Source of the DNA: a virus | Taxonomy: Duplodnaviria; Caudoviricetes | DNA length: 64,000 nucleotides | Strand: one strand, 5' to 3' | IMG/VR virus record: IMGVR_UViG_3300003320_000620 | Coordinates: 1-64,000 of that record | Shown: piece after piece, positions 29,709 to 55,607 of the stretch | How the letters are laid out: each line of letters opens with the position of its first letter | Position numbering within the stretch: position 1 is the stretch's first letter | Made by a program: the position numbers and the translations under genes | Notes under the pieces: generated by a model | What the model was told of the DNA's origin: nothing | The model's input: only the letters and a program-made list of their open reading frames with translations | Databases searched by the model: none

Positions 29709-29738
29709 TTGACAAAAAACTATAAGATGTTGTATCTA
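29709..29738 (+). promoter_or_regulatory. Putative sigma70 promoter of the rightward operon
   Basis: TTGACA at 29709 then 17-18 nt then (G)TATCTA, 30 nt upstream of the RfaH-like gene. Confidence 0.45.
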
Positions 29739-29769
29739 CAGCAAGTTCCTTGCTGAACCAAGTGCCCCA

Positions 29770-30252
29770 ATGCCCTGGATCGTAGCCTTAACGAAGCCAA
29801 ATCAGGAGCACATAGCCTGCGAAAATCTTTCGCGTCAGGGCTTCCAGTATTATTGGCCTCGTTTCAGTCAAAAAAGACCTAACAAAAAGGATGTTGTTTG
29901 CAGTCTGTTTCCTCGCTATCTTTTTGTTCTTATTTCACAAATTTGGTATCCATTAACAGGGACAAGGGGTATTTCAAAAGTGCTATTAGGAAATGATGGA
30001 CCCCTAATTCTACCGGGGTCAGAACTAGACAATTTGAGAAAGCGTGAAGGGGTGAATGGCCTCATTCAGCTTTCGCCACTCCCTCCTAAATTCCAGAACG
30101 GCGACAAGGTCAAGGCAACAGAAGGTGCTTTGGCTGGCCACCTGTTGATCTATGAGGGGATGACTGCTAAGGACCGTTGTCGTGTCCTAGCCCAGCTGCT
30201 GGGTGGGCACGTTCGCGTAGAACTGGACGAAAAGCTGCTGGTGGCAGCTTAA
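29770..30252 (+). CDS. RfaH/NusG-paralog transcription antiterminator
   Basis: NGN domain (WIVALTKPNQEHIACENLSRQGFQYYWP...LFPRYLFV) plus KOW domain (FQNGDKVKATEGALAG). Confidence 0.9.
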   Translation: MPWIVALTKPNQEHIACENLSRQGFQYYWPRFSQKRPNKKDVVCSLFPRYLFVLISQIWYPLTGTRGISKVLLGNDGPLILPGSELDNLRKREGVNGLIQLSPLPPKFQNGDKVKATEGALAGHLLIYEGMTAKDRCRVLAQLLGGHVRVELDEKLLVAA

Positions 30253-30300
30253 TGGGTTTGTGATCCACAACAGTAGGCAGTCTAGGTAAATCCCTGGACT

Positions 30301-30311
30301 GCGGTAGCTTG
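30301..30311 (+). promoter_or_regulatory. ops-like element
   Basis: TGCGGTAGCTTG versus the ops consensus GGCGGTAGnnTG (only the first base differs). It sits in the gap between the RfaH-like gene and csp, on the non-template strand. Confidence 0.65.
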
Positions 30312-30322
30312 AGGGCTTTATT

Positions 30323-30550
30323 GTGAGTGAAGATGTTTTAGTACAGGGGGTTGTTAAGTGGTTCAACAAAGAAAAAGGCTATGGCTTTGTTACGCCTAAT
30401 GGCAATGGATTTGACATCTTCATTCACGCTAAGCAACTCAGGCTGTCCGGGATAGACAGCCCTCTGGAAGAGGGGAATAAAGTCAGCTTTGTAACCAGTA
30501 AAGGCCCAAAAGGGCCTTTTGCTACGAAAATCACAATCCTGAAAGGTTGA
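30323..30550 (+). CDS. Cold-shock domain protein (CspA family)
   Basis: GVVKWFNKEKGYGFV (RNP1) and DIFIH (RNP2). Confidence 0.95.
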   Translation: MSEDVLVQGVVKWFNKEKGYGFVTPNGNGFDIFIHAKQLRLSGIDSPLEEGNKVSFVTSKGPKGPFATKITILKG

Positions 30551-30554: not shown

Positions 30555-30725
30555 ATGGCTAAGAAGAGCTACTCGGCTAAGGCGGCTGCTGCAGGCAAAG
30601 ACATTGGAAAGCCTGGGAAGAACTTTTCGAAAATTGCTGAAAGCGCTGGCAAGAAGTATGGCTCAGCCGAAGCTGGTAAGCGCGTAGCTGGTGCTGTGCT
30701 GGCCAAGCTCCGTAAGAAGGGCTAA
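30555..30725 (+). CDS. Small basic protein (56 aa)
   Basis: MAKKSYSAKAAAAGKDIGKPGKNFSKIA...VAGAVLAKLRKKG; below the ORF-track size cut-off. Confidence 0.7.
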   Translation: MAKKSYSAKAAAAGKDIGKPGKNFSKIAESAGKKYGSAEAGKRVAGAVLAKLRKKG

Positions 30726-30728
30726 TTC

Positions 30729-31034
30729 ATGGCAACTTTGTACGTCACTGAGTTTTCTGCTGTCCTTAATATCCATGCTGTCGGTGGCGCTGCAGCTTTT
30801 CAGCCGCCAGTAGCCGAACAGACAGTTTCTATTGGCGGCGCTTCTACGGCTTCTTCTGCATTCAATAATGGCACACGCCTTGTTCGCCTGCACACCGATG
30901 CAATCTGTTCTATTGAGTTTGGTACCAGCCCAACAGCAGATGCTACAAAAGCTCGAATGGCAGCAGGGCAGACAGAATACTTTGCAGTACCTGAGGGTAA
31001 GAGCTATAAAGTAGCTGTCATTACGAATACCTAA
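30729..31034 (+). CDS. Hypothetical virion-associated protein
   Basis: 101 aa, beta-rich, in the late operon. Confidence 0.7.
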   Translation: MATLYVTEFSAVLNIHAVGGAAAFQPPVAEQTVSIGGASTASSAFNNGTRLVRLHTDAICSIEFGTSPTADATKARMAAGQTEYFAVPEGKSYKVAVITNT

Positions 31035-31042
31035 GAGGCAAA

Positions 31043-31654
31043 TTGGCCATGATGCTAACATCTACTACAGCTGCAGACGCAAGTGGTGCTTTTGCTATCC
31101 TTAAGATGCTTGGTGATGACAACGAATATAAAAAGAGATTCGATGAAATCACTGAGGCACTCAATCAGGCAAACAAAGCACAGGAAGATGCCAAAGCAGC
31201 GGCCGATGCGGCTCAACGTAAAATTGATCTAGCTGAGAAAGTAGCAATTGAGGCTCAGGCTAGGGCTGCAGAACTAGAAGTAAGGAAAACCAATCTCGAT
31301 GCAAAAGAAGCTTATCTGCTCTCCTATCTTGAGAGCTTAAAGCAAAAAGAATCTCAGATTAAGGCTGAGGCTGAAAAAGCATCAGCCGATGTAAAGAAAG
31401 CACTTCAGCAAGAAGCTGCAAAGATTTCAGACAAAGAAAAAGAGATACAGGCTAAGATTGCTGACTTTGAAAAGTACAAAGCTAATGAAACAAAACGAAT
31501 TGATTCTATCAACAACGATCTTCAGTCAAAGGTTCAAGCTTTGAATTTACAGGATGTTAATCAAAAAAAGCTATTAGCAGAAGCTATGGCGTTAAAGGCT
31601 GATTATGAAAAGAGGATTGCAGCTGTGCTGGCTGCTATCAATAAAGATAAATGA
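31043..31654 (+). CDS. Coiled-coil protein
   Basis: Heptad-rich A/K/E composition. Confidence 0.7.
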   Translation: MAMMLTSTTAADASGAFAILKMLGDDNEYKKRFDEITEALNQANKAQEDAKAAADAAQRKIDLAEKVAIEAQARAAELEVRKTNLDAKEAYLLSYLESLKQKESQIKAEAEKASADVKKALQQEAAKISDKEKEIQAKIADFEKYKANETKRIDSINNDLQSKVQALNLQDVNQKKLLAEAMALKADYEKRIAAVLAAINKDK

Positions 31655-31923
31655 GCATTGTAGCCTCCATCATACTCTCAACTTACGTCCAAGCCGACGG
31701 CCGCCACTGGGTGCGTGAGCAGCATACCGACCAGATCGGGGTCAAATGGTTGCGGACCTATCTGGTGGGCGCGGCGGACGACCTTAATGCGGCACTCGCA
31801 GCCTATGCCGTGCAGCTCGCGGCGGACATTACGGCGCAGGAGATTGCGACCAACATCGCGGCAGTGATGGCAACCGGATCACAGGCGACGATCAGTCTCG
31901 TCTACTCAACGGCAGGGCAATAG
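31651..31923 (+). CDS. Hypothetical protein
   Basis: 90 aa; ATGA overlap with the upstream gene. Confidence 0.6.
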   Translation: MSIVASIILSTYVQADGRHWVREQHTDQIGVKWLRTYLVGAADDLNAALAAYAVQLAADITAQEIATNIAAVMATGSQATISLVYSTAGQ

Positions 31924-33342
31924 ATGGCTAGCTATTACGTCCGATCAGGTGCTGCCGGTGCTGGCACGGGGGCTGATTGGGCCAATGCCTATACGACGCT
32001 GACGGCGGCCGTATCGGGCAAGGCGGCTGGCGATATTTTCTACGTGTCGGAGGATCACAATGAATCGACTGCTGGTGTGGTGACAATTACGTCGCCGGGG
32101 TCACTTACTAGTTTCTGCTTTTTCTATTGTGTCGATCATAACGGAACTGTCCCGCCAGTATCTGCAGATTTAAGAACAACTGCTCAAGTATCAACAACGG
32201 GCAACAACATCCTTTCGGTTAACGGAATCGGGTATTTTTACGGGATAATCTTTTCGTCCGGTAGCGGGGCTAACTCAGTAAATTTCGTAGTCAACAATAC
32301 GAATACATCTCAACAAATATATGATTCTTGCGCTTTGCGTCTTGGTGGAACTTCTGGCGGCCAATTGCAGTTGGGGCGAACCAATGCTCAGGTTACATTG
32401 AATAATACAACGTATCAGGTATCTGCATCAGGGTCTACGATAGCAGTCGCTGGACCAACCGTATGGAGAAATACACCGTCTGCCATTACCGGAGCGACGT
32501 TACCAACGAATCTAATTTCAGGCGGGAATACGGACCTGAACCTCATTATGATTGGTGTTGATTTGAGCGCTTTGGGTTCCGGCAAAACGATCTACGGTGC
32601 TGGATCAGTTAGCGGGTTCGCTAGACTTATCGATTGCAAATTAGGTGCCTCCGTGACAGTGGCGGGCACAATCTCAGGTCCTGGGCGATATGCAGATCTC
32701 GTAAGGTGTGACAGCGGGGCAACGAATTACCGAGATGAGAGGTATTGGCTCCAAGCAATTCAGACAGTTGAGACAACGATTGTTAGAACTGGCGGGGCCA
32801 CTGACGGAACAACACCAATTAGCTGGAAAATCGTAACAACTACCAGTGCTAAATGGGTTGGTCCATTCGAATCCCAGCCCATCACCATCTGGAACGACTC
32901 CACATCAGCCATCACCACGCTGACGTTCTACGGCACCACGACAGGCGGAGGTGTGCCGAACAACGATGACATCTGGGTAGAGGTGGAATACCTCGGATCG
33001 GCGTCAACGCCGCTGGGCTCATTTGTAACTACGACCAAGAGCAATAACCTAGCTCCATCTACTACGACAAATAATTCCTCTGACGGCTCTACGTGGGGTG
33101 GCGGCGGTGCTGGGAATGGGTTCAAGATTGTGGTGCCTTCGTTCACACCTAGAATGAAAGGGCCGCTCAACATTACAATCAAAGTAGCGAAGGTGAGCAG
33201 CACTTATTACATTGATCCGCGCCCTGCAATAAACGGCGTTACAGTTTCAAAGTCTGAAATTCTGGCCCCTGGTGTCTATGCCAACGAACTAAGCAGTGGC
33301 GGTCTTGTTCGTAACCCTAGTCTTGCTGGGGCTGCGCAATGA
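31924..33342 (+). CDS. Putative virion fibre or spike protein (beta-helix-like)
   Basis: N-terminus YYVRSGAAGAGTGADWANAYTTL..A...GD is typical of beta-helix proteins; T/S/G-rich. Confidence 0.65.
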   Translation: MASYYVRSGAAGAGTGADWANAYTTLTAAVSGKAAGDIFYVSEDHNESTAGVVTITSPGSLTSFCFFYCVDHNGTVPPVSADLRTTAQVSTTGNNILSVNGIGYFYGIIFSSGSGANSVNFVVNNTNTSQQIYDSCALRLGGTSGGQLQLGRTNAQVTLNNTTYQVSASGSTIAVAGPTVWRNTPSAITGATLPTNLISGGNTDLNLIMIGVDLSALGSGKTIYGAGSVSGFARLIDCKLGASVTVAGTISGPGRYADLVRCDSGATNYRDERYWLQAIQTVETTIVRTGGATDGTTPISWKIVTTTSAKWVGPFESQPITIWNDSTSAITTLTFYGTTTGGGVPNNDDIWVEVEYLGSASTPLGSFVTTTKSNNLAPSTTTNNSSDGSTWGGGGAGNGFKIVVPSFTPRMKGPLNITIKVAKVSSTYYIDPRPAINGVTVSKSEILAPGVYANELSSGGLVRNPSLAGAAQ

Positions 33343-34031
33343 AACTTAATGTTCCTCTTGGGGCTACATCTTATATAACTCAAATTTTTATTCAGGATTC
33401 TTCAAGCACGACTGGGGCTGGCCTAACTGGACTTGTGTTTAATTCTTCAGGTTTGACTGCCTATTATCACCGAGATACCGATACAACAGCTACTGCGATT
33501 ACTCTTGTCACAATGACAGTTGGCACGTTTACGTCATCAGGATTTAAAGAGATCGATTCTACGAATATGCCAGGATGGTATCAATTCTGTCCGCCAAATG
33601 CGGCACTAGCTTCTGGGGCTAAGTCCTGTGCCTTCCATCTAAAAGGCGCAACCAACATGGCGCCATTACCGATTGAGGTGCAATTGGTAGCTTATAACCC
33701 TGACGATGCAACATCCCTTGGTTTATCTCGTCTTGATACTGCTGTTTCTACACGCGCTGCCCCCGGCGATGCAATGGCCTTAACATCTTCTGAAAGGAAT
33801 TCTACTGCAGATGCTTTTCTAAATCGAGATATGTCAGTAGGGGCCGATTCTGGTTCTTCAACCGTTCGAACGGTACGACAAGCTCTTCGTTTCCTTCGAA
33901 ATAAGTGGACTATTGTTACATCTACATTAACTGTTTACAAAGAGGACGATAGCACAACGTCTTGGACTGCAACTGTTGGCACTGATCCATCTGCTGTACC
34001 AATAATCTCTAACGATCCAGCAGGTCCTTAA
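33339..34031 (+). CDS. Putative virion structural protein
   Basis: 230 aa, T/S-rich, coupled to the fibre gene. Confidence 0.65.
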   Translation: MKLNVPLGATSYITQIFIQDSSSTTGAGLTGLVFNSSGLTAYYHRDTDTTATAITLVTMTVGTFTSSGFKEIDSTNMPGWYQFCPPNAALASGAKSCAFHLKGATNMAPLPIEVQLVAYNPDDATSLGLSRLDTAVSTRAAPGDAMALTSSERNSTADAFLNRDMSVGADSGSSTVRTVRQALRFLRNKWTIVTSTLTVYKEDDSTTSWTATVGTDPSAVPIISNDPAGP

Positions 34032-34032
34032 A

Positions 34033-35286
34033 ATGTCTTTTATAGATCGCTGCATATTCACTCCGACAGCCGGGGGCCTGGGCGACTTTGTCGTTTCAGC
34101 TGCCGTGCAGGGCTATATGACGCCAGCACAGGCGAGTGCGGTGGATGGAAAGACCTATGGTTATGCCGCGCAATCGAGCGATCTAAGCCAGTGGGAGGTT
34201 GGCGTTGCTACTTATACCGCGTCCACTACAACGCTTGCACGAACGACCATTCTGTTTTCCAGTGCTGGCGGCGCCAAGGTTGATTTCAGCGCTGCACCAC
34301 AAGTGCTCTTATCGGCGCTTGCTGAGCAGCTCATTCCCGCTGATATTTCATCTCCGAGCGACGGCCAAGTCCTGTGCTTTCGAGGCGCGGATTCTACTTG
34401 GACTAACGACGCCCGTATGATCGGCAAGAATGCTGCTGGAGGCTCCGGCAATCCAGGGCAGGACGTGACGGTCAGAAGCGGGAATGGTGATGGGGTCGGA
34501 GCTGGAGGACAAGTATCGCTGATCTCCGGTGATTGTTTCTATTCGGGCTACTATGGGGGCAAGCTGCTCATCAAAACCGGAGATGGGCATAATGGAGCTT
34601 ATGCGGGCCGCATGTATATTCAAGGCGGTGCGCCTTACGGCTATGTGAACATCCGATCGGGCGACGGCAGCGCGGATTATGAAACCGCTGCGGATTTGCG
34701 AATTTACTCCGGCAATGGTTACGGTGCCGAGGGTGCTGGCGGCTATGTGGTTCTTGCTGGCGGATATGGAAAAGGAACCTCCGCAGGAGGAACCGTTCGA
34801 GTTAAAGGCGGCAATGGCTCCTATGGACTTGGATCTTACACACAGATGGGCCCTGGGTTTTATAAAACGGGCGGAAGTTTGACGATGCGTGGTGGGGCGA
34901 GCGGGAATCCGGGCTCTGGTGGATCATTTAATTTATATGGCGGGAATGGTGCTGGTGGAGGGTATTTTGCAGGGGGCTTCGTGTTGAAGGGCGGAAGCGG
35001 CAACAATGGTGCTATTGGGGGCGACGTCTACATAAGGGGCGGAAGTGCCAGTTATGCAAATGGGGGCCACTCTAAACTGTCAACAGGGCCGAGCGCCGGA
35101 TCGGGTCAAGCGGGGCACCTCTATCTTGATGTAGGCTCGGCTACTGGCGGTTCATCGCCCGCGAGCATCTACATCAACAAAGATGGAAATACATCCAACA
35201 TCATCGTTAAGAACCTGCCGATATCAAGCGCCGGACTCCCCTCTAATGCCTTGTGGAACAATTCAGGCGTCATCAATATAACGTGA
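34033..35286 (+). CDS. Gly-rich tail fibre-like protein
   Basis: Repeated GG.v.i.gG.G units after an N-terminal anchor-like domain. Confidence 0.7.
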   Translation: MSFIDRCIFTPTAGGLGDFVVSAAVQGYMTPAQASAVDGKTYGYAAQSSDLSQWEVGVATYTASTTTLARTTILFSSAGGAKVDFSAAPQVLLSALAEQLIPADISSPSDGQVLCFRGADSTWTNDARMIGKNAAGGSGNPGQDVTVRSGNGDGVGAGGQVSLISGDCFYSGYYGGKLLIKTGDGHNGAYAGRMYIQGGAPYGYVNIRSGDGSADYETAADLRIYSGNGYGAEGAGGYVVLAGGYGKGTSAGGTVRVKGGNGSYGLGSYTQMGPGFYKTGGSLTMRGGASGNPGSGGSFNLYGGNGAGGGYFAGGFVLKGGSGNNGAIGGDVYIRGGSASYANGGHSKLSTGPSAGSGQAGHLYLDVGSATGGSSPASIYINKDGNTSNIIVKNLPISSAGLPSNALWNNSGVINIT

Positions 35287-35293
35287 GGATCGC

Positions 35294-35578
35294 ATGCCAA
35301 AGACGGCGACGACGTCGTTTACCGAAATCAAGTTTAGCCGGGAAGAGATTCTGGAATGGATCCAGTCCCACATGTCGATATTGCAACCAACCGATGCGGC
35401 GATTAATCACGGTTCCGGCCCCGGCTCTCCGGCAAAATTCATCGGGCTGACGTTTGGTGCGACCCGCGATCAGGTCGACGAGTATTTGCGCGAGGTCGTC
35501 CAGGGCCTTCCCCCGATTGGGCGTTACCAGTTCCGGCTTACAGAAGACGGCGGCGCCATGGTCAGGTGGCAGAATTGA
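35294..35578 (+). CDS. Hypothetical protein
   Basis: 94 aa, GAGG SD. Confidence 0.55.
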   Translation: MPKTATTSFTEIKFSREEILEWIQSHMSILQPTDAAINHGSGPGSPAKFIGLTFGATRDQVDEYLREVVQGLPPIGRYQFRLTEDGGAMVRWQN

Positions 35579-36402
35579 TGCACTTCATTTCCGGGCTGCC
35601 GCGGTCCGGCTCCACGCTGCTTGCAGCCATTCTGCGGCAGAATCCGCGGTTTCATGCGGGCATGTCATCGCCGCTCTCTGGCGTCGTGATGAAAGTGCAG
35701 CAAGCCCTCTCGCGCGGGAATGAGGGGGCGGAGTTCATCAGTTCCGATCAGAAGCAGCGCATTCTCTCGGGTGTGTTTCGCAATTTCTACGAGGGCTTCA
35801 CTGAGGAAGTCATCTTCGACACCAGCCGCGCATGGTGCTCCAAGCTGCCGTTAATCGCTTCCTTGTTACCGGACGCCAAGGTGATCTGCTGTGTGCGCGA
35901 CGTATCGTGGATCATGGATTCGATCGAGCGGATATTGACCAAGAATCCGCTCGAGCTGTCGGGCATCTTCGGGTTCAATCCGGGGGGCACTGTTTTCTCT
36001 CGGGCTGACGGGCTGGCATCGGCGAACGGCATGGTCGGGTTTGCGCTCAATGCCGTGAAAGAGGCATTCTTCGGAAAACATGCTTCGCGTTTGATGCTCG
36101 TTGAATATGAGGCGCTGGCGCGCGATCCGGCCGCGGTCGTCAGGCACATCTACGAGCATATCGGCGAGCCCGCATTCGACCACGATTTCACGAACGTGAG
36201 CTATGAGGCAGACGACTTTGACGCGCTGCTCGGTACGCCAGGGCTGCACAAGGTCGAAGGGCCGGTTGTGTGGCGTGAGCGAGAGACCATTCTGCCTCCG
36301 GCGTTGTTCAATCGCTTCAGCAATGATGCCTTCTGGCGTGACCAGACGCTGAACGTGCGCAAGGTGCCTGTGGTTATGCACGTTCGGAAGGGCGCGGTTT
36401 AG
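35566..36402 (+). CDS. PAPS-dependent sulfotransferase family protein
   Basis: 5'-PSB loop FISGLPRSGSTLL, 3'-PB CVRDVSWIMDS, then VEYEAL. Confidence 0.85.
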   Translation: MAELMHFISGLPRSGSTLLAAILRQNPRFHAGMSSPLSGVVMKVQQALSRGNEGAEFISSDQKQRILSGVFRNFYEGFTEEVIFDTSRAWCSKLPLIASLLPDAKVICCVRDVSWIMDSIERILTKNPLELSGIFGFNPGGTVFSRADGLASANGMVGFALNAVKEAFFGKHASRLMLVEYEALARDPAAVVRHIYEHIGEPAFDHDFTNVSYEADDFDALLGTPGLHKVEGPVVWRERETILPPALFNRFSNDAFWRDQTLNVRKVPVVMHVRKGAV

Positions 36403-36600
36403 ATGCTTGGAAATTTTGCATTAATGCAAACACCATTGATGGGTTTCTCACCGAGCGGTGTTGTTCAGGGTGATTGCCGATCGATGTTTGCATTCTGGAT
36501 GGGTGGTGCCTGCGCTCAGTCACCTGATGCCCTAAGTCGAATTCATTTTGTTGGATTTCATGGGATGGGTGGTGGTGGGTTAATGCATGGAGCTTAAGAA

Positions 36601-36762
36601 ATGCCATCAAAAAGTGTAAAGCAAGCGAAAACGATGTCTGCTATTGCTCATGGTTGGAAACCTAAGGGCAACGCTGCTGACATTCCAGTCAAAGTGGCTA
36701 AGGAATTTCACAACGCCGACGCAGGCAAGAAATACGGTCATAAAAGAGGAAAGGGTAAGTAA
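36601..36762 (+). CDS. Small basic protein (53 aa)
   Basis: MPSKSVKQAKTMSAIAHGWKP...VAKEFHNAD. Confidence 0.7.
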   Translation: MPSKSVKQAKTMSAIAHGWKPKGNAADIPVKVAKEFHNADAGKKYGHKRGKGK

Positions 36763-37059
36763 ATGGGCTACGGTAAGGAAAGTGTGAAAGCTTACGTTGG
36801 TACCGAAAAGCGTGGCTCATCCCTAATTGGTGAGTGCGGCGAAGGCCACGACAAGCAGCCGCAAGGCCACCCGATTGGCACTGGCCAAAAAGGGCCTAAT
36901 CTTCGTGGTTTGCCCCGCAGTGGTGACAGCCAGATCTTTGGCAAAGTGTCGCTGAAGACCCCCGACATCTTCCGCTCAGCAGGACATCACAAGGATGGTA
37001 AACTGCGCATGTCTGGTCATTCTGGTGCTCACCGGGTTGGCGGTAAGAAGAAGTACTAA
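36763..37059 (+). CDS. Small basic Gly/His/Lys-rich protein
   Basis: C-terminus LRMSGHSGAHRVGGKKKY. Confidence 0.65.
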   Translation: MGYGKESVKAYVGTEKRGSSLIGECGEGHDKQPQGHPIGTGQKGPNLRGLPRSGDSQIFGKVSLKTPDIFRSAGHHKDGKLRMSGHSGAHRVGGKKKY

Positions 37060-37322
37060 TGGCCAAGAAAAAAGCCCTTTACAGCCAAACGCCAGCTGTG
37101 CCTGCAAAGAAAATAGCAGGCACAAATCCTGTTGGCTTAGTCCTGATTGGGCTTCATGGCCCCGGTATGGTTCCTGAGAAGGGCGGCATGACTAGGGGGC
37201 TGGTACCAAAGAACAAGTTCCACCAGCCTAAGCCACATGGTTTCAACCATAGTATAAGACAACGCAGTGGCCATCTACGATTGTCCGGTCATGAAGGGGC
37301 GCATAGGGTTGGCAAGAAATGA
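37059..37322 (+). CDS. Small basic Gly/His/Lys-rich protein
   Basis: C-terminus LRLSGHEGAHRVGKK. Confidence 0.65.
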   Translation: MAKKKALYSQTPAVPAKKIAGTNPVGLVLIGLHGPGMVPEKGGMTRGLVPKNKFHQPKPHGFNHSIRQRSGHLRLSGHEGAHRVGKK

Positions 37323-37951
37323 AACTAAAGCTACCTCAAGCTTTTAGGTCCAAGCTTGCTGTAAACCCTAGGATGTATGTGAAGGGGAAGCACAAAGGCG
37401 GCTCCAATTTTGTACCAGGGAACCAACTTTCCACAATTGAAAACCTTTCAGCAGAGGCACATGCAGCCAAAATGTCCGCGATGTATCAAGGATGGAAAAC
37501 TAGAGTGCAAAAATCCAAAGGCATAAAGGTACTCTCTGTGGAACAGAAGAAAAAGCGCGAGATGCGCAAACGTGTTAAGCTGCAGGAGACTGTTGCCCGC
37601 GAGGCACGTGAAATTCAGGATATGGCTAGGATGGCAGCTGAAGAGGCAATGCTCTGCCTTCAGGCCATTATGCTGAGCCCTGATACGCGGCCTAGTGACA
37701 AGATATCAGCCATCAACACGATCCTTGATCGGGCCTACGGCAAGGCTACTCAGACTAACGTCAACGCAAACGTAGACGCTAATGGCAAAGAAGCAGACAT
37801 CAGCGCAGCTGAACTCCAGAGAAGAGTTGAGAAGGCTCTCAATAGAATTGAGACAATTGCAGGGGGAGATGGAGAAGCGCGAGCGAGCCAAGACAGACCT
37901 CCTGACGTACGCGAGTACGATAGAGATCCCAACAGCTCCACAAAGCACTGA
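37319..37951 (+). CDS. terS: Terminase small subunit (probable)
   Basis: Immediately upstream of TerL; DKISAINTILDRAYGKATQ motif. Confidence 0.65.
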   Translation: MKLKLPQAFRSKLAVNPRMYVKGKHKGGSNFVPGNQLSTIENLSAEAHAAKMSAMYQGWKTRVQKSKGIKVLSVEQKKKREMRKRVKLQETVAREAREIQDMARMAAEEAMLCLQAIMLSPDTRPSDKISAINTILDRAYGKATQTNVNANVDANGKEADISAAELQRRVEKALNRIETIAGGDGEARASQDRPPDVREYDRDPNSSTKH

Positions 37952-39431
37952 TTCTGACGAGGAACGCGAAGAGTTTATTCCTCTAACCACGAATTTTGGG
38001 GCACACCACTTGCTATGGCTCAATTGCTTGCAGCAGGTGGAAGACGGTAAGATAAAACGTCTTATGGGCTTCATGCCGCCAGGATCGGCCAAATCAACCT
38101 ATACGTCAGTTGTATTTCCAACACACTTTTTAGGCAGGTTCCGTAGAAGCCAAATAATTTTGGCTTGTTACGACAGTGACCTGCCTAGGAAGCTAGGCCG
38201 TCGAGCTAGGTCCATAATCACTCAACCAAAGTTTAAGCGTATCTTTGATTGCACAATTTCGCCAGAATCCGCAGCAGCAGACGAATGGGCATTGACAAAT
38301 GGTAGTGAGTGGATGGCAAAAGGCATCACTACCGGCATTTCAGGTAACCGCGCAGACGGCATAATTTGGGACGATCCAATAAAGAACCGTGAAGCTGCTG
38401 ACTCCGAAGTCATCAGGGAAAAAACCTGGAGTGAGTATCAAGATGCTCTCCTTACCCGTAAAAAGCCACAGGCTTTTGAGGTGGGAATAACTACAAGATG
38501 GCACGAAGATGACCTTGCAGGCCGAATTTTGCCCCTCAACTATGCTGGTGAATCTGGCTGGATAAAATGCCGTGACGGCAATGATTGGTACGTTGTCTGT
38601 TTGCCTGCAGAATGTGAACGTGAAGATGACATTTTAGGCCGAGAAATCGGCGAAATTCTTTGGCCAGAATGGTTTAGCAAAGATTTTTTTGCTACTTTCA
38701 AGCGTCAAACTAGGACGTGGAACGCACTGTATCAGCAGCGCCCAGCACCAGAAACAGGCGATTTCTTTCAGGCTGACTGGCTTAAGCCCTATCAAAAGAT
38801 GCCAGACAGGCGTACCCTTAACATTTATGGCGCTAGCGACTACGCGGTGACCCAAGATGAGGGTAACTATACCGTCCACATTGTTGTGGGCGTTGATCCT
38901 GCTCACCGTGTCTACCTCCTTGATCTTTGGCGCAGTCAAGCTAGCCCAGATAAGTGGATTGAAGCCTTTTGCGACATGGTGGCCTTCTGGCGGCCAATCG
39001 GCTGGGCTGAAGAAACAGGGCAAATCAAAGCCAGTATTGGGCCATTCCTTGAGAAACGGCTACGCGAACGTCAGCTTTACATCGCAAGGGCTAAATTCCC
39101 AACAAAGGGCGACAAGGCAGTCAGGGCACAGTCTATAAGGGGTAGGATGGCTCAGGACGGCCTATACGTTCCAATTCACGCCCCATGGTTTCCTGACTTT
39201 AAACGTGAATTGATGACCTTTCCAGCAGCCCGCAACGACGACCAGGTTGACTGTTTGGGTTTGATAGGTCAAATTCTTGACAAGATGATCTCAGGAAGAG
39301 CCATAGACCCTGAATCTTTACGGCCGAAAGTATTTTCTACTAACCCAGAGGAGTGTACAGTTACCCTTTTGGACATGTTTGAGGCGAACGAACAGCGGGT
39401 TAACGTGCGTAGCAACTTAAGGATACATTAA
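37782..39431 (+). CDS. terL: Terminase large subunit (start may be MEKRER near 37870)
   Basis: MPPGSAKST (Walker A), GIIWDDP (Walker B), TTRWHEDDL, ASDYA nuclease Asp and RNDDQVD. Confidence 0.95.
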   Translation: MAKKQTSAQLNSREELRRLSIELRQLQGEMEKRERAKTDLLTYASTIEIPTAPQSTDSDEEREEFIPLTTNFGAHHLLWLNCLQQVEDGKIKRLMGFMPPGSAKSTYTSVVFPTHFLGRFRRSQIILACYDSDLPRKLGRRARSIITQPKFKRIFDCTISPESAAADEWALTNGSEWMAKGITTGISGNRADGIIWDDPIKNREAADSEVIREKTWSEYQDALLTRKKPQAFEVGITTRWHEDDLAGRILPLNYAGESGWIKCRDGNDWYVVCLPAECEREDDILGREIGEILWPEWFSKDFFATFKRQTRTWNALYQQRPAPETGDFFQADWLKPYQKMPDRRTLNIYGASDYAVTQDEGNYTVHIVVGVDPAHRVYLLDLWRSQASPDKWIEAFCDMVAFWRPIGWAEETGQIKASIGPFLEKRLRERQLYIARAKFPTKGDKAVRAQSIRGRMAQDGLYVPIHAPWFPDFKRELMTFPAARNDDQVDCLGLIGQILDKMISGRAIDPESLRPKVFSTNPEECTVTLLDMFEANEQRVNVRSNLRIH

Positions 39432-40250
39432 ATGCGTGTGTTAGTTACTGGCGGAACTGGAACTATTGGATCAGCCATTGTTAAGCATTTAATTTCAAAA
39501 CAACACGAAGTAGTTATTCTAAGCCGTGATGAATATAAGCAGCATAGGCTTAGGCAAGAAATAGGTGATAGTACCAAATTTATACTGGGCGATATCAGAT
39601 CTTACGACACTCTATTAGACGCAATGGCTGGAGTAGATAAGTGCTTTCACGTAGCAGCCATGAAGCATGTTTCCCTTTGTGAAGAAAATCCCTATGAAGC
39701 GGTCCAAACCAACGTGATTGGAACTAAAAACGTAATAAGGACAGCAAAAGAACGATTGGTGTCAAAGGTGTTGGCAATATCTACAGATAAGGCAGTCAAC
39801 CCCATTTCAGTCCTTGGTGGAACCAAGTTTATTATGGAGAAATTGCTTAAGGCTGAAAAAAACGAACCACCATTCGTAACCAAATTTGCATCAATCCGCT
39901 TTGGTAATATTTTTGATTCGCGTGGATCAGTTTTTGATGTTTGGAAACGCCAAGCGGCATTGGGTGAACCGATAACAATAACTGATTCTAGAGCTACAAG
40001 ATATTTCATATCAATAGATAAGGCTGTGTTTGCTGCCTATAAAGCGATGCTTGCTTTTCAGGGTGGGGAAACCTTTATTGTTGATTGTGGTGATCCAGTT
40101 AACATCTCTGGTTTGGCTCATAAGCTTTATCCTGAAGAAGGAAGGACATTTGTTTATTCTGGGTTAAAAGCAGGCGAGCGTCTTCATGAAGAATTATTTT
40201 CTTCAAACGAAACACCAGAATTTGGCCCCGAAGGGTTGATGGTAGTCTAA
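39432..40250 (+). CDS. NDP-GlcNAc 4,6-dehydratase (PglF/PseB/LegB-like, Polysacc_synt_2 type)
   Basis: TGGTGTIG, SRDEYKQ, AAMKHV..CEENP.EAV.TNVIGT, STDKAVNP..LGGTK and RFGNI.DSRGSV. Confidence 0.9.
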   Translation: MRVLVTGGTGTIGSAIVKHLISKQHEVVILSRDEYKQHRLRQEIGDSTKFILGDIRSYDTLLDAMAGVDKCFHVAAMKHVSLCEENPYEAVQTNVIGTKNVIRTAKERLVSKVLAISTDKAVNPISVLGGTKFIMEKLLKAEKNEPPFVTKFASIRFGNIFDSRGSVFDVWKRQAALGEPITITDSRATRYFISIDKAVFAAYKAMLAFQGGETFIVDCGDPVNISGLAHKLYPEEGRTFVYSGLKAGERLHEELFSSNETPEFGPEGLMVV

Positions 40251-42978
40251 ATGGCCATTGAACTTGACGAGCTGGCAGGCCCAGACGGTGGTGAAGAGAG
40301 CAGGAAGCTAGCCAAGCACTGGATAGAACAGTTGTCCATGATTAAGGACAATGGCGACAATAAACGTTGGGTTAAACGTGGTGAGGATATTGAAAAGCGT
40401 TATAGGGACGAACGCAGTCGCAGTGACGAGCAAGGTCAGCGCCGCTACAACGCCCTATGGTCCAATGTTCAGATCCTTAAGCCCGCCTTGTTTGGCAAGG
40501 TGCCAATCCCAATTTGTGAGCGGCGTTTCAAAGACAAAGACCCGGTTGGCCGGGGCGCTGCTCAAATGCTTGAGCGTGCTCTAAGGAATGAGATAGAAGT
40601 TTGTGGCTTTGGGGACTCACTAAGCAGGGCCGTTGATGACTATCTTCTTCCTGGTCGTGGTGTGGTTTGGGTACGCTATGAGCCTGAATTTTCAGAAAGT
40701 ATTTCACTTCCTGTTGAGCAGGAAACTGATATTGACGCCAAAATAGGCCAAAGAGCCGTTGGCAAAAATGATGACGATGAAGATCATGATGACGGTCCTG
40801 CATCTGAGGAAGGAAAGCAAGAAGATTACAATGAAGAGGGTGAGGCTCATGAGCCACATGAACAAGCTAATGAAGAAAAGCTTCAAAGTACAGGCGATAG
40901 AATTATCAGGGAATCTACCCCTGTAGATTACATTCCCTGGAAAGACTTCATAACCTTTCCGGCTCAAGCGCGAACATGGCCTGAAGTTACCGCTATTGGC
41001 AAGCGCGTTTACATGTCGCGCAGCCAAATGAAGAAACGGTTTGGAAAGAGGATCGGCAGTGCTATTCCCTTACAGCGTGACGACCGTGGTCCTAAAACCC
41101 AAAACGCAAGCGTTGTCGTATCATCAGACCAAGACAAAGGTATCATCTACGAAATATGGTCGATTGACCACATGGCGGTTTTTTGGGTGGCTGAGGGCTA
41201 TGATTATCTTTGTGATCGCAAAGACGACCCACTAGAATTGGAAAACTTTTGGCCAGTTCCACGACCACTCTTCGCTAATTCCACCAACAACACTTTGATA
41301 CCAGTCCCTGACTATATTCAGTATCAGGATCAGGCAATTCAGATTGATGAATTAACGCAACGCATTGCTATGCTGGCAAAGGCTTGTAAGGTTGCTGGTG
41401 TCTATAATGCCGCAGCCAAAGAAATTAAGCGCGTCTTTAACGAATCCTTAGAGAACGAACTCATACCAGTTGACGATTGGGCTGCTTTTGCTCAAGAGGG
41501 TCAAGGTGTGGCTGGAAATATCAGCCTAATGCCCATCAAGGATATTATGGGTGTTCTAAATGAGCTTATTACAGTTAGGAAGTTGGCTATTGAAGATATG
41601 GATCGTCTTACTGGTATCAACGATATTATGCGTGGCACTAGTGACGCGCGTGAAACTTTGGGTGGGGTGCGACTTAAACAAAATTCAACAGGCACTAGAA
41701 TTACTGCACGACAAAATGAAGTAGCTAGGTTTGCTAGAGACATAGTTCGTATTATGGCGGACATCATGTGTCGTCATTTCAGTCCTCAATCGCTAATTGA
41801 GGCCTCAGGTGCCCTTTACGAAGAAGGGCTTGGGCCTGAAGATATGCCTGATTTGACAGAATTGCAGCCGCCAGAACAGCAGCAAATGCCGCCACAGGGA
41901 CAGAAACCGCTTGGTCTTCTGTCATCACAGGCTCAGCCAAATGTTTCCTCAGCCCCAGCCGGTTCCTAATCAGGGGCCAATGCCCCCTCAAATGCCGCCG
42001 TCTGGCCCTCCACAGGGGATGCAGCCGCCAATGGGCGGGCAGCAGCCTCTAAATGGCCAGATTTTGCCACCTCAGCAGCAGATGCCGCCTGAGATTATGG
42101 CAAAAATGAAGGCCTTTGAGCGGATTGGCAACGCTATAGAACTACTTAGAGATGAAAAACTTCGCGGATTTCGCGTAGATATTGAAGTAGATTCTACAAT
42201 TTTCCCAGATGCGGCCCAAGAGAAGGCAGATAGGACAGAATTTATCACTGCTACAACCAAATTTCTTGAGACTGCAATGCAGATGGGCTCAGTAATGCCC
42301 GAATCTATCCCACTTTTGGGCAAAATGCTGCAATTTGGCGTTAGGGGCTACCGTGTAGGCCGTGATCTTGAGGCTTCAATTGAAGAATTCACTGATGAAG
42401 CCATAAGAGCAGCCAAAAAGAAGCAAGAAAACGCTGCAACTGCCCAGAATCCGGACATGATTAAGGCTCAGGCCGATGCAAAGAAGGCCGAAAGCCAATC
42501 TCAGGTTGCTCAGATCAAGGCACAGGCCGATATTGAGAAGATTAAGGCTGATCGTGAGAACCAGCAGCAAGAATCGGCTGCTGAAGTTGAACGACAACGC
42601 CTAGAAAATGAGGGTGAGAAGCAAAACGCCCAAATGGAATATATGTCTAAACAAATTGACATACAAATGAAAATGATGGAGAAGCAACTTCTTGAAATGA
42701 AGATGCAGATGGAAATGTTTAAGGCTCAGCATCAGACCAGACAGGGTCAACAGGAGATTGAGCAGCAAGACCGTGCTATGGCGCATGACGAACAAATGCA
42801 GCAGCAGCAAGCTGTGCAGCAGGAACGTCAATCTCAGCGTGACGCTCAAATGCAGGACCGACAGATGGCTATGCAGGAGCGTGATGCTATGTTCCAGGAG
42901 CGTCAGGCAAACCAAAAGATGCAGCAACAGGCTATGAAGCCCGTCCATTCCCCTAAACCAAACCCCATACAGCAGTAG
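40251..42978 (+). CDS. Portal protein, split by a +1 frameshift near 41940-41969
   Basis: ORF 40251..41969 is portal-like (GINDIMRG, RETLGG). The homology-type tail (ELLRDEKLRGFRVDIEVDSTI) continues in the +1 frame, 41911..42978. Confidence 0.85.
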
Positions 42979-42983
42979 CGTTC

Positions 42984-43295
42984 ATGTCAACTTATGTCTT
43001 ACGCAACGGTCGGCTTGTAAACAAAGAGCGAGCTCCACCTTTAATTGAAAGATTTGGCGACGCCCCTTATGTTGTCAGCGATTGCATGCCAGAAACAAGG
43101 CATATGGTGGATGGAAATTACTACACATCAAAAGCCAAGTTCCGTGAGGTAACTAGGGCAAATGGATGTGAAGAAGTAGGAACAGAAACAGCCTATATGC
43201 TGAAGCCACGGCAGAAAGTAAAGCTAGATCGTGGCAAAAGACGCGAAGACATAAAGAAAGCTATCTACACTCTCAGAAATGGTAAGCGGAGATAA
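42984..43295 (+). CDS. Hypothetical head-module protein
   Basis: DGNYYTSKAKFRE..RANGCEEVG pattern, located between portal and scaffold. Confidence 0.75.
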   Translation: MSTYVLRNGRLVNKERAPPLIERFGDAPYVVSDCMPETRHMVDGNYYTSKAKFREVTRANGCEEVGTETAYMLKPRQKVKLDRGKRREDIKKAIYTLRNGKRR

Positions 43296-43297
43296 GT

Positions 43298-44506
43298 ATG
43301 TTGTTTGTGGACAAGTATAAGCCGTATTTCAGCCCCGACATGGAGGTTGGAGCTGAGCAAGATGTAGGGTTGCCAGAAGGCGCTATTGCTGAAAATATTC
43401 AGGAACAAGGCATTCCAGAACCTGCTGATGGCCCTGGCAGTGGTCGTAGCAAGCTTCGTAAGCAGCTAGAAACCAGCGTTGCTGAAGTAAACAAGCGAAC
43501 TCAAGAGAAGCCTGCGAAATATGTAAGCCGAGCACGTCAGGAGGGGACAGCTGCGCCGGAGGCTGAGGAAGAGCCAGAAGCCGAACAGGAAGGTCAGGAG
43601 CAGGAAGCGAAACCTGCTACAAACCCACCCGAGGCATGGGCAAAAGAGGCAAAAGCTGAATGGGCAAAAGTCCCTACAAATGCCCAAGCAGCCATTCTCA
43701 AGCGTGAAGAGGATGTGGCTAAGGGCGTGCACGCCCTTCAGTCGTATTACAGGGATCTGGAAGAAGTACTGTCACCCCGCTACGAACTTTTTAAGCAGTA
43801 CAACAAGACGCCTGCGCAGGCTGTAAATCAGCTGTTTGGCTGGTTCGATGCCTTAGGCGGCAACCCAGACCAAGCCTTCCCTGCGTTGATGAGGACGTTT
43901 AACTACGACCCAAGGCGTTTGATCCCATTTATCAACCAGCTGGGTGGACAGCAGCAACAGCAGCAGCCCGAAGGTGAGCAAGAAGTACCGCCTGCCTACC
44001 TACAATACATCAACCAGCTGGAACAGCGCGTTGCTGGCCTGACCGATGCTGTCTCAAAGAAAATAGGCGGCCTCGAAAATATGTTTGCTCAGCAGAATCA
44101 GGCCAGGGTTCAGGAGACTCTAGATGTGTGGTCAGCCAATAAGCCACACTTTGAAAAAGTTCGTGTTATGATGGGCCATCTGCTGGAGTCTGGTCAGGTG
44201 CCACCACTGCCAAATGGCGCTGCTGATCTAGACAAGGCATATGATATGGCTTTGTGGGCGCTTCCTGAAGTCAGACAGCAAGTAATGGCTGACATAGAGG
44301 CTAAGCGTGCAGCCGAACTGAAGGCTAAGCAGGATGCTGAGCGTAAAGCACAGAAAGAAGCTGCTGACAAAGCCCGCCGCGCCTCCGGTGGCCTTGGTCC
44401 TAGCGCCCCAGGCTCCCCAGTTAATCCAAACCAGTCACGCAGGCCACAGCGAAAGAGCGTTCGCGAATCCTTAGCTGATGCCATCGCAGAGGTGCGCGGC
44501 GAATAA
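43298..44506 (+). CDS. Capsid scaffolding protein (probable)
   Basis: Position before the capsid gene, acidic N-terminus, PPEAWAKEAKAEW motif, coiled coils, C-terminal SVRESLADAI. Confidence 0.8.
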   Translation: MLFVDKYKPYFSPDMEVGAEQDVGLPEGAIAENIQEQGIPEPADGPGSGRSKLRKQLETSVAEVNKRTQEKPAKYVSRARQEGTAAPEAEEEPEAEQEGQEQEAKPATNPPEAWAKEAKAEWAKVPTNAQAAILKREEDVAKGVHALQSYYRDLEEVLSPRYELFKQYNKTPAQAVNQLFGWFDALGGNPDQAFPALMRTFNYDPRRLIPFINQLGGQQQQQQPEGEQEVPPAYLQYINQLEQRVAGLTDAVSKKIGGLENMFAQQNQARVQETLDVWSANKPHFEKVRVMMGHLLESGQVPPLPNGAADLDKAYDMALWALPEVRQQVMADIEAKRAAELKAKQDAERKAQKEAADKARRASGGLGPSAPGSPVNPNQSRRPQRKSVRESLADAIAEVRGE

Positions 44507-44716
44507 ATGAATGTCTTCAGGACAGCCATAAAACTTAAATGCAAAAGGGAACTGGCTCTAATGCTTGGGGCCTACAAGCCTCATCTTCTAGAGCCGCGTT
44601 CCTATTGCATTCACGTTAAGACTGAGCTAGACAGAATTAAAGGAACACTGATCTGGCCCATAGTCAGTGATGGAACAGTTTCAGTTACGTCCAAAGGAAT
44701 AAAGATAACCTCATAG
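44507..44716 (+). CDS. Small hypothetical protein
   Basis: 69 aa, coupled to the scaffold stop. Confidence 0.45.
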   Translation: MNVFRTAIKLKCKRELALMLGAYKPHLLEPRSYCIHVKTELDRIKGTLIWPIVSDGTVSVTSKGIKITS

Positions 44717-44870
44717 CAGTTCGTGAGGACCCTCACAGGGGTAAAGGAACTGCAGCGTGGCAATGTCACTTACGACGTGTCAGTAGCTGTGGCCAGAACA
44801 AGTGTGCCAAGCGAACCACACAAAGGGTGGTGCTACTCCAAACCGGGCTAGGAAACCGAAAGGAGTAACC

Positions 44871-47800: not shown

Positions 47801-48555
47801 AGATATGTTCTGAACTCTACAGGAATGTAGAGAAGTTGGCAGAAATGACCAACTCGGCTAATGTACTTATCACTTATAAGTATGTCAAGTCGGTAACAGA
47901 TTGCAATACGAAGTACATCCACTGGCGCCCTCATAGCCGCCGCAACATGGTCCCTCTTGATCCAGACCGCTTCTCGGTTAATAGTTGGCCGCATGCAAAG
48001 GCGACTTTGCATTGAAAATTGGGTGAATTGCTGGAACACCCCACTGGGGCAATCAGCAGCCAAGCTGCTTAGGAATAAGCAGAAGGTTCAACGACTAGGT
48101 AGAGTAATCCAGACCGGACGAAATACCCACGAGCGCCCAACACCTCTAGTAGGTGAAGATATAGTCTGAACTGTGCAGCAATGTGCAGAAGTGGCAAATA
48201 AAGAGTTGTCACGGTAACAAAAATGCAACCAAGACGCGATGGTAAGATTGATAGGATGGGCTGGGAATATGACCCTGAGCAATGCGTTAACTGAGAAGCG
48301 CCCTCAATATCTAAATTGAGGAAAACTGGGTGAAACGGAGAAAACCCTTATGGGGCAACTCCGTAGGAAGCTGGCAAGGGCATGGTTTGCCAGAACCTCT
48401 AGAGACTAGGTCCTGAGTCCCAACAATAATGGACCCACGAGCGCCCGGCACCGAAAGGTGATGAAATAGTCCGATCTGTGTAGCAATACGCAGAAGTGCA
48501 GGATAAAGAGCTTGCACGGTAACAGAATGTTCTTCAGGGGATCTTAGTGTCGTAA
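44871..48555 (+). CDS. Major capsid protein, 7 exons, 343 aa after splicing
   Basis: Exons: 44871-44987, 45883-45926, 46185-46393, 46649-47147, 47904-47978, 48226-48287, 48530-48555 (1032 nt, one open frame). Junctions read TKRG|NLKTFSGGRTIVQEL|NYANN...AEDTF|MNGLSQG...MYFL|NTKYIHW...DRFSV|NQDAMVRLIGWAGNMTLSNAF|LQGILVS. AAAGGAG SD upstream. Confidence 0.9.
44988..45882 (+). mobile_element. Group I intron 1 (895 nt) with GIY-YIG ORF
   Basis: Exon ends in U and intron ends in G. IGS AGGTT|GCCACG pairs with both exons (U.G at the splice site). Core motifs GAATTCGGTGAA, CCGAGCCAAG, AGAGACTAG and GATAGTCC. Confidence 0.9.
45158..45874 (+). CDS. Intron-encoded GIY-YIG homing endonuclease
   Basis: GIYVIECVPTGRVYVGSS...RIKSH...EQEWI...FN; its 3' end overlaps the intron core. 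Confidence 0.9.
   Translation: MDEVPGIYVIECVPTGRVYVGSSVKPLARIKSHKNLLSKGTHRNVHLQRAWGLHGSNSFTFTVVQQCVAEERFKVEQEWITKLQATGKNGFNIAFPVEQVLPSERMSQVSRTSWKDKKTRKNRHAGILTKWQDDAFRERKLRDGLKAREALAKKRLDPEWRARISEKTSKTMKERAKTEEGLKALRVASKIAHMRRENDPEFKAKCEAGLKYSSTNKEIVRPAANKEAAEVMDKEPSR
45927..46184 (+). mobile_element. Group I intron 2 (258 nt, no ORF)
   Basis: U|...G| boundaries, P1 GAGCU/GGCUC, core GGTGAATTCGG, CCGAGCCAAG, TGTAACGA, GAAGATATG. Confidence 0.85.
46394..46648 (+). mobile_element. Group I intron 3 (255 nt, no ORF)
   Basis: U|...G| boundaries, IGS TGA|GGG; core nearly identical to intron 2. Confidence 0.85.
47148..47903 (+). mobile_element. Group I intron 4 (756 nt) with antisense LAGLIDADG ORF
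   Basis: U|...G| boundaries; the core at about 47670-47903 is similar to introns 2 and 3. Confidence 0.85.
47185..47646 (-). CDS. Single-motif LAGLIDADG homing endonuclease, antisense within intron 4
   Basis: YVAGLFDGEGF motif, VKREEVDLVL and LKKR C-terminus typical of the family; GGAG SD on the minus strand. Confidence 0.9.
   Translation of the reverse strand: MDDRYVAGLFDGEGFARIFKKVRKGHVGYYPAVGIGMTHYPIIKMLYDEFGGHLNQNRHDLRNPKNRIQFCWGIHNQGVAPFLRRIQPYVIVKREEVDLVLALRDHIDQHPYNFPGRGDGSNRKDRDLILAYREELYLKCKALKKRSYPPLTD
47979..48225 (+). mobile_element. Group I intron 5 (247 nt, no ORF)
   Basis: IGS TTG|GCCG pairs with exon CGGU and with 3' exon CAA; AACGACTAG and GAAGATATAGTC. Confidence 0.9.
48288..48529 (+). 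mobile_element. Group I intron 6 (242 nt, no ORF)
   Basis: IGS GAA|GCGC pairs with exon GCGU and with 3' exon TTC; AGAGACTAG and GAAATAGTCC. Confidence 0.9.
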
Positions 48556-48601
48556 AGACACCAACAAATGTTTTTACTCCGTTAGTGAAGCCTATTATGT
48601 A

Positions 48602-50506: not shown

Positions 50507-50515
50507 ACACGACGA

Positions 50516-55606: not shown

Positions 55607-55607
55607 C

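Follow-up and report, generated by a model that had tools for sequence, protein, structure and literature searches.

A candidate RfaH/ops-type processivity cassette at the head of a 45.7-kb virion unit in a phage genome

The stretch of phage DNA analysed here (the window) comprises positions 1-64,000 of the record IMGVR_UViG_3300003320_000620, which is 88,094 bp long in full and has a CheckV completeness rating of 97%. Genes at positions 1-29655 and at the far end of the record are read leftward and have a replication and repair content. From 29770 to ~75,479 of the record, maps of open reading frames (ORFs) revealed an uninterrupted series of co-oriented plus-strand genes of 45.7 kb, extending the more than 33 kb that a first-pass annotation of the window had described. 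Exactly at the point of divergence between the two units lies a cassette formed by a gene for an RfaH-like NGN-KOW elongation factor of 160 amino acids (aa), an RNA hairpin, an element resembling the operon polarity suppressor (ops) and a gene for a cold-shock protein (Csp) of 75 aa. The NGN-KOW gene, the ops-like 11-mer 48 nt past its stop codon and the Csp gene had all been noticed in the first-pass annotation and are present where it had placed them. We consider it probable that they constitute a cis-encoded RfaH/ops-type processivity (antitermination) cassette heading the rightward virion unit.

Searches with the factor sequence detected the Pfam NusG/NGN family (4.4e-11) and phrog_6386, annotated as 'transcription antiterminator' (2e-12). 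Among the curated NCBIfam models RfaH (TIGR01955) scored best with 77.3 bits, ahead of UpxY (37 bits, cut-off 100), LoaP (20 bits, cut-off 125), both below their cut-offs, and NusG. With a profile of 33 homologues, E. coli RfaH chains were matched across the full length of the protein (residues 2-153) at 4e-18; the best NusG chain, that of Bacillus subtilis (8ehq), reached 9e-13 and the E. coli NusG entries ~1e-11. An AlphaFold2 (AF2) model of the factor, with a predicted local distance difference test score (pLDDT) of 83, was used for a Foldseek search, in which RfaH accounted for seven of the eight top matches with a root-mean-square deviation of ~2-2.6 Å for the N-terminal domain. RfaH is the best match by sequence and by fold, and on these comparisons the factor is, as the first-pass annotation had proposed, a genuine RfaH-like protein, a distant member of the RfaH subfamily. 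The public gene call P0009 (29980-30252) covers only a 90-aa C-terminal fragment, apparently started from an internal GTG, and carries no precomputed Pfam match, so that annotation-based database searches would miss the factor; the 160-aa form is supported by all homologues, of which 53 were collected. The protein ends in Val-Ala-Ala (30241-30252), and an Ala-Ala end was found in 74 of the 80 bacterial homologues (L081-L160) and in the phage clade. This end resembles that of the ssrA degradation tag, although NusG too ends in a related strand.

An alignment of the family showed that the polymerase-binding motif LFPRY(L/I)F (LFPxYLF) is invariant. In the structure of RfaH bound to ops, lysine (K) 10, histidine (H) 20, arginine (R) 23, glutamine (Q) 24 and R73 form the T6 pocket and the ops contacts (PMC5995543). 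K10, R23, Q24 and R73 correspond to K9, R22, Q23 and R66 of the factor and are conserved in the profile and family alignments, R22, Q23 and R66 being invariant or nearly so across the 33 homologues. At the position equivalent to H20 (position 19) the window protein has asparagine (Asn), and several relatives have His. Four of the five residues of the ops-binding site are identical to those of RfaH, with one polar substitution. The equivalents of F130 and R138 (Y128 and R136) are likewise conserved.

The 11-mer GCGGTAGCTTG occupies positions 30301-30311, and the factor stop codon ends at 30252. Together with the preceding T it reads TGCGGTAGCTTG and agrees with nine of the ten specified positions of GGCGGTAGnnTG. 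A polymerase pause is expected at T11 (30310), followed by G12 (30311); G2, T11 and G12 suit the consensus pause G-10/Y-1/G+1, which ops exemplifies (PMC5995543). The 11-mer pattern was found twice in the 64-kb window against 0.31 expected, a number reached by six of 100 shuffled sequences, and a single 11-mer in the window is not significant by itself. Its significance lies in its position and in its conservation in relatives. For this comparison we fetched 80 viral and 80 bacterial loci encoding relatives of the factor, together with the contigs of the closest metagenomic relatives; the viral relatives were found by an alignment-based scan, while a single-sequence scan of viral contigs had yielded none. 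In the 1.2 Mb of the 160 related loci, all 59 occurrences of GCGGTAGNNTG were on the sense strand, and 56 of these 59 sites were situated 0-200 nt past the stop codon of the homologous gene. Of 166 loci, 91 contain the exact core GCGGTAGC in the 250 nt that follow the homologous gene, compared with 3 of 322 control windows; its median distance from the stop codon is 63 nt (interquartile range 52-74). Position 1 of the element is T in 82 of the 91 loci, and TG is found at positions 11-12 in 58 of them and shifted by one base in many others. The ops-like 11-mer is accordingly conserved downstream of homologous genes, the check that the first-pass annotation had proposed.

The phage genome contains one sense-strand ops-type site in a leader, and this site stands at the head of the 45.7-kb block. 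The other GCGGTAGNNTG sequence of the genome, GCGGTAGTCTG at 3506-3516, is on the plus strand inside a minus-strand gene, lacks C9 and is probably a chance match. A degenerate ops pattern was no commoner in whole related phage genomes than its reversed control, which makes it useless for counting sites.

Alignment of the 12 phage-clade loci revealed a natural covariation within the element. Four loci (L003, L005, L165 and L166) read GTGGTAAC or GTGGCAAC in place of GCGGTAGC, and the exchange of C3:G8 for T3:A8 is always a double change, with no locus showing a single change. Across the 12 loci RNAalifold scored the pair C3:G8 as CG in eight, UA in four and broken in none, and G2:C9 as invariant. 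The elements of L163 and L165, whose proteins each share ~73-74% identity with that of the window, differ at C3/G8 alone. In E. coli C3:G8 serves the architecture of the non-template hairpin by which G5 and T6 are offered to RfaH, and the double-substitution result cited with this structure agrees with the covariation found here (PMC5995543). We infer that the phage element likewise forms a small non-template hairpin closed by C3:G8, and we regard the covariation as the best single piece of evidence for an ops-like action of the element. A GYGTAYCC-like short element 3-20 nt past the factor stop codon (30253-30270 in the window) also recurs in L163-L165 and L003-L006. It was considered as part of a promoter between the factor gene and the hairpin and rejected, as no -35 sequence stands at the proper spacing.

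The 3' arm of the 10-bp RNA hairpin takes in positions 1-3 of the ops-type element. The intergenic stretch has a minimum free energy (MFE) of -23.8 kcal/mol (z = -2.1), and across 96 loci the 45 nt ending at ops position 3 gave a mean z of -1.9, with the hairpin ending at positions 1-3 in 78 of them. Compensatory changes affect five of the ten pairs among the five closest loci, and the stem sequence varies among phage relatives; in the bacterial loci the stem GGTGA...TCACCCGG is conserved. With the RNA 3' end at U11, the end of the stem would be ~9 nt behind, at the edge of the RNA:DNA hybrid, and the hairpin may reinforce the pause or block backtracking. A search of Rfam with 30253-30322 detected no family at E up to 10, JUMPstart included.

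The hairpin bears on the first alternative, a recruitment of LoaP type through nascent RNA, in which the hairpin and GCGGUAGC in the transcript are recognised and the likeness to ops reflects shared sequence ancestry and not mechanism. LoaP needs a leader RNA hairpin. The LoaP system is treated in PMC12691694. Such a recruitment would account for a hairpin that abuts the motif at so many loci and for the conserved stem of the Bradyrhizobium-type loci, and the C3:G8 covariation is also compatible with a small RNA stem. Against it stand the variable stem of the phage relatives, among which the 8-nt core is kept, the conserved equivalents of the E. coli RfaH residues that contact ops DNA, and the low score of the LoaP model. 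We consider it quite improbable.

The fourth part of the cassette, the Csp, matched the CSD family (PF00313) with 70.8 bits (cut-off 27), and both RNA-binding motifs, RNP1 (KGYGFV) and RNP2 (DIFIHA), are intact in the translation. The best NCBIfam match was CspE with 68 bits, below the equivalog cut-offs of CspE and CspA. CspE and CspA melt RNA hairpins and antiterminate. The Shine-Dalgarno sequence of the gene, GAGGG (30311-30315), overlaps the end of the ops-type element, and in relatives it is found within a few nt of ops. Factor, hairpin/ops and Csp are kept together in 11 of 11 close phage loci, which bears out the assignment of Csp to the cassette in the first-pass annotation; in L002 the Csp gene comes after an insertion. 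Small genes following Csp are also conserved in L163. Directly after Csp, the ORF 30555-30725 encodes a Lys/Ala-rich product of 56 aa with no family match, and its matched part is 94% identical in L163, far above the conservation of its neighbours.

Table 1. Features of the factor/ops cassette and of the rightward unit that follows it.
Feature	Position	Strand	Evidence
RfaH-like NGN-KOW elongation factor, 160 aa	29770..30252	+	Pfam, NCBIfam, PHROG, profile, Foldseek
ops-type element TGCGGTAGCTTG	30300..30311	+ (non-template strand)	Positional conservation in relatives
10-bp RNA hairpin: GCAGTCTAGG, loop TAAATC, CCTGGACTGC	30277..30302	+	MFE, covariation
Csp, cold-shock-domain protein, 75 aa	30323..30550	+	Pfam CSD 8.6e-20
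Promoter-like site: TTGACA (29709-29714), 18-nt spacer, TATCTA (29733-29738) preceded by TG	29709..29738	+	Conserved upstream of factor
7-bp hairpin CAGCAAG / CTTGCTG, start of presumed 5' untranslated region	29739..29755	+	Read from sequence
Remainder of rightward unit	30555..64000, on to ~75,479	+	ORF maps, TerL and portal PHROGs
Content of rightward unit: small conserved proteins, terminase, portal, intron-bearing capsid region, nonulosonic-acid pathway, adaptor, tail genes			
Group I intron, within virion unit	47969-48188		Rfam 96 bits

The nearest bacterial homologues of the factor are ~40% identical and mostly belong to Bradyrhizobium, Pseudolabrys, Afipia, Nitrobacter and other Xanthobacteraceae/Nitrobacteraceae. 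In Bradyrhizobium sp. McL0615 a MarR-type regulator gene is followed by the factor gene, by a hairpin with TGCGGTAGCTTG and by genes for a GFO/IDH/MocA (WbpB) oxidoreductase, a hexapeptide acetyltransferase, an epimerase/dehydratase and a DegT aminotransferase; divergently oriented upstream is an O-antigen-ligase-like gene. The 16 bases GGACTGCGGTAGCTTG are identical in McL0615 and the phage. Judged by gene order, the arrangement of factor gene, hairpin and ops heads polysaccharide operons in Bradyrhizobium-type bacteria. A strict search for the extended hairpin-plus-ops pattern in five Bradyrhizobium-type genomes found a site adjoining the factor gene in each, and in one of the five a second site without an adjacent factor gene. 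This second site (L178) is located in the McL0615 chromosome at ~7,100,686 and consists of the same hairpin and TGCGGTAGCGTG; no factor gene lies less than 1.5 kb away. It is likely to be a trans target of the bacterial factor, and its lack of an adjacent factor gene makes trans action possible in bacteria.

The first-pass annotation had seen the logic of the switch as matching the sugar-pathway cargo of the phage. The link is only indirect: polysaccharide operons are headed by the nearest homologues in cells, but the proteins of the phages make up a clade of their own. In a quick maximum-likelihood tree the phage factor proteins were monophyletic (29 rows, SH-aLRT, the Shimodaira-Hasegawa-like approximate likelihood-ratio test, 99) and separate from the bacterial clade (28 rows, SH-aLRT 96). 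A recent capture of the cassette and the sugar genes from Bradyrhizobium-type hosts is unsupported, as phage and bacterial proteins fall into these separate, well-supported clades; because the tree is unrooted and comes from a quick search, no direction of transfer can be claimed. Searches of 50,697 records of cultured phages with blastn and tblastn detected nothing related to the region or the protein.

The window and ten relatives (including L001, L003, L005, L006 and L164-L167) share, 30-60 nt ahead of the start codon, a TTGACA hexamer with a TG-TAT-type element 17-18 nt behind it. The site in the window was not listed by a consensus scanner, its second hexamer being weak. With this conserved TTGACA promoter directly upstream, the factor gene is the first of its unit and is predicted to be read by a sigma-70-type holoenzyme. 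At the place of the 7-bp hairpin that follows the promoter (29739-29755), L003, L164 and L165 have hairpins of other sequence.

Several observations weigh against an RfaH/ops-type cassette that serves the whole unit. On the side of the protein, the factor remains below the RfaH equivalog cut-offs (144.5 for TIGR01955; 45 bits against a cut-off of 124 for NF006534) and is by the NCBI criterion a distant relative and not an orthologue. Besides the Asn in place of H20, the HTTT loop is not conserved in the factor family, and the equivalent of E48 is Cys, Arg or Lys, so that the partner of the interdomain salt bridge is gone. The fold of the C-terminal domain was settled by neither a deep nor a shallow AF2 alignment. 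With 33 sequences AF2 gave a mixed domain of short strands and a helix at 133-143 (pLDDT 70-82), and with ten sequences this helix alone (pLDDT <55); the predicted helix occupies the place of a strand in the NusG-type KOW domain. Such 'mixed' predictions have been described for RfaH homologues adjoining long operons (2026 preprint, PMC13015549). On the side of the element, position 6 is C and not the critical T6 in L164 and L166, and in P0007, from one of these two loci, the equivalents of H20 and R23 are also changed.

The downstream genes add further points of this kind. Consensus scans of the late unit for promoters and terminators gave no more than shuffled controls, and they identified no specific barrier that the factor would have to overcome; at the end of the rightward unit there is a weak terminator candidate only. 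The internal hairpin that the first-pass annotation had marked at 50516 is present (50515-50540, 11-bp stem), but its T-run is on the minus strand only, and without a plus-strand U-tract it is no obvious plus-strand terminator. Shine-Dalgarno sequences precede 16 of 51 genes in the late unit (31%) and 27 of 63 in the early unit (43%), which, with start sites being uncertain, is no clear difference. Finally, a candidate internal promoter at 60320-60355 (TTGACA, 18-nt spacer, TG-TATAGC) lies in the 52-nt gap before the ORF 60372-61079. Its layout is that of the site at 29709, and the distal genes may be driven from it independently of ops. Late promoters downstream of the element had been named in the first-pass annotation as a finding that would tell against an ops switch, and the candidate at 60320 may be one for the most distal genes.

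These promoters are the starting point of a second alternative, by which the hairpin-reinforced pause and the factor act locally to tune how the factor gene and Csp are expressed or coupled, with internal promoters serving most of the virion genes. Besides the TTGACA...TGTAT-type candidate at 60320, a TTGACC site at 49722 and the lack of identifiable terminators above chance in the unit would fit such a role. Known NusG paralogues, however, work across whole long operons (PMC7593976), the single ops-type site exactly heads the 45.7-kb co-oriented block, and the cassette also heads long polysaccharide operons in bacteria, and we regard a purely local action as very doubtful. A functionless chance match of the 11-mer beside a general NusG-like gene, which the window count and the second, antisense copy at 3506 would allow, is effectively refuted by the conserved position in 91 of 166 loci, the 59:0 strand bias and the covariation, and has next to no probability left.

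For the RfaH/ops-type cassette, the domain family, the motif with its position, conservation and covariation, the hairpin, the promoter and the gene order were read directly, and the sequence of events set out below is modelled on E. coli RfaH and on CspE/CspA as regards pausing, loading, exclusion of NusG and Rho, ribosome capture and the contribution of Csp, and also read-through and timing. Host multi-subunit RNA polymerase would initiate at the TTGACA promoter at 29709 and transcribe the factor gene. About 25 nt past the stop codon, the nascent RNA would fold into the 10-bp hairpin against the transcription bubble, and the polymerase would pause at T11/G12 of TGCGGTAGCTTG. In the paused complex the non-template strand could form the small hairpin of G2:C9 and C3:G8, offering G5 and T6 to the basic patch of the factor (K9, N19, R22, Q23 and R66). 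The NGN domain would then stay on the polymerase, keep out NusG and Rho and lower pausing, while the KOW domain probably captures the first ribosome at the Csp start site, which would emerge 1-13 nt later. Csp, an RNA-melting chaperone, would be the first protein that the modified complex yields, and it probably assists with the late RNA, which is highly structured.

Since the unit on which the factor acts yields the factor first, distal expression would be expected to rise as the factor accumulates, and we speculate that this provides a built-in delay and possibly an early-to-late timer. The stop codon is conserved 50-75 nt from the hairpin-reinforced ops pause, and the cassette may be a natural case of the cis recruitment that has long been hypothesised for a NusG paralogue, in which the freshly released factor would load onto the very polymerase that has transcribed its gene. 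Molecules that miss it would be marked by their Ala-Ala tail for proteolysis, which would replace autoinhibition as a safeguard against a genome-wide displacement of NusG. This extension of the proposed mechanism is tentative, and we think it rather unlikely to hold in full.

The phage appears to depend on host polymerase, since none of the large ORFs scanned in the leftward unit encodes a phage RNA polymerase; each encodes a replication or repair protein or a protein of no known function. The products of this unit include a DnaB-type helicase, a DNA polymerase, SbcCD, a UvsX-like recombinase and SSB. In the rightward unit the terminase has its closest counterparts in Brucella phages and in one Microcystis phage (53% identity), and together with the bacterial homologues of the factor these terminase relatives hint at an alphaproteobacterial host. 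The unit also gave matches to NeuB, DegT, an epimerase, MptE-like proteins and an SU10-type adaptor. At 50581-57766, in the mid virion operon, genes for NeuB, a DegT-type aminotransferase, a hydrolysing 2-epimerase, a GNAT protein and two MptE/Maf-like proteins make up a nonulosonic-acid pathway, which may serve the glycosylation of virion proteins. The unit holds at least one group I intron; that at 47969-48188 was the only one to reach the gathering score in the Rfam scan, and an ORF for a homing endonuclease of HNH/GIY-YIG type (48602-49720) adjoins it. The portal family phrog_12082 was matched by two overlapping successive ORFs, 40251-41969 (profile positions 10-473) and 41911-42978 (profile positions 502-714), and a frameshift, an insertion or an assembly error appears to have split the portal gene.

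RfaH/ops is a textbook system that is known almost entirely from enterobacterial chromosomes and plasmids. If the cassette works as proposed here, it represents a way for a phage to transcribe a 46-kb unit that is unlike Q, N, sigma replacement or a phage polymerase. The natural covariation supports the non-template-DNA hairpin model of ops recognition outside Enterobacteria. In this locus and its relatives the new features are Csp as a conserved partner, a hairpin directly adjoining ops, a natural covariation of C3:G8 and a cassette shared with Bradyrhizobium-type polysaccharide operons. The fixed short spacing of factor gene, hairpin and ops in phages and Bradyrhizobium-type bacteria makes the idea of an 'ancestral cis-recruitment' (PMC7819879, PMC13015549) testable.

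The phage cassette is most similar to E. coli RfaH/ops, which serves lipopolysaccharide, capsule, haemolysin and F tra operons from a JUMPStart leader. Common to both are a protein of ~160 aa with NGN and KOW domains, for which E. coli RfaH is the best sequence and fold match, a non-template-strand core GCGGTAGC with TG within the leader of a very long operon, the equivalents of K10, R23, Q24 and R73, and the maintained C3:G8 pair. In contrast to E. coli RfaH, whose stand-alone gene serves scattered operons, the phage factor is encoded in cis, immediately upstream of its site; it has Asn for H20 and neither the HTTT loop nor E48. The phage element has T at position 1, as in most of the related loci, where E. 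coli has G, and is abutted by an RNA hairpin without a match to the Rfam JUMPstart family.

UpxY of Bacteroides capsule operons and LoaP of Bacillus polyketide operons are also leader-dependent NusG paralogues, encoded by the first gene of their own long operon or beside it. They differ in the low scores that their models gave for the phage factor, and LoaP in its use of an RNA hairpin. To our knowledge, no ops-type DNA element is known for UpxY or LoaP.

The first-pass annotation had proposed an RfaH/ops switch for late genes instead of a factor of lambda Q type. Factor and ops were both found, but the first-gene slot behind a sigma-70-like promoter is more like that of UpxY and PrfaH than that of Q. 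The logic of lambda Q/qut is the same, in that a phage factor is loaded onto host polymerase at a promoter-proximal pause just past its own gene and a long late operon is read. Q is an unrelated protein, and the phage locus has neither a Q-binding element nor any sign of a sigma-dependent pause; the factor matched NusG/RfaH-type families only and not the Q family, the rest of the genome not having been searched for a Q homologue. Unlike lambda Q, the phage factor has its gene inside the unit that it controls. Phage- or prophage-borne rfaH-like genes have been mentioned only in passing (PMC7593976), and in the searchable literature we found no description of RfaH/ops as a late-operon device of phages.

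Another relative on a mobile element is PrfaH/ActX of IncX conjugative plasmids, which is co-transcribed with its long target operon and has an ops-like site on the non-template strand (PMC11880322); its structural match to the factor was weaker than that of E. coli RfaH (Foldseek rank 16). The ops-like site of IncX3 lies in the 5' untranslated region upstream of prfaH (PMC11880322), whereas the phage site lies ~50 nt downstream of the factor gene, so that the polymerase would arrive there just after the factor is made.

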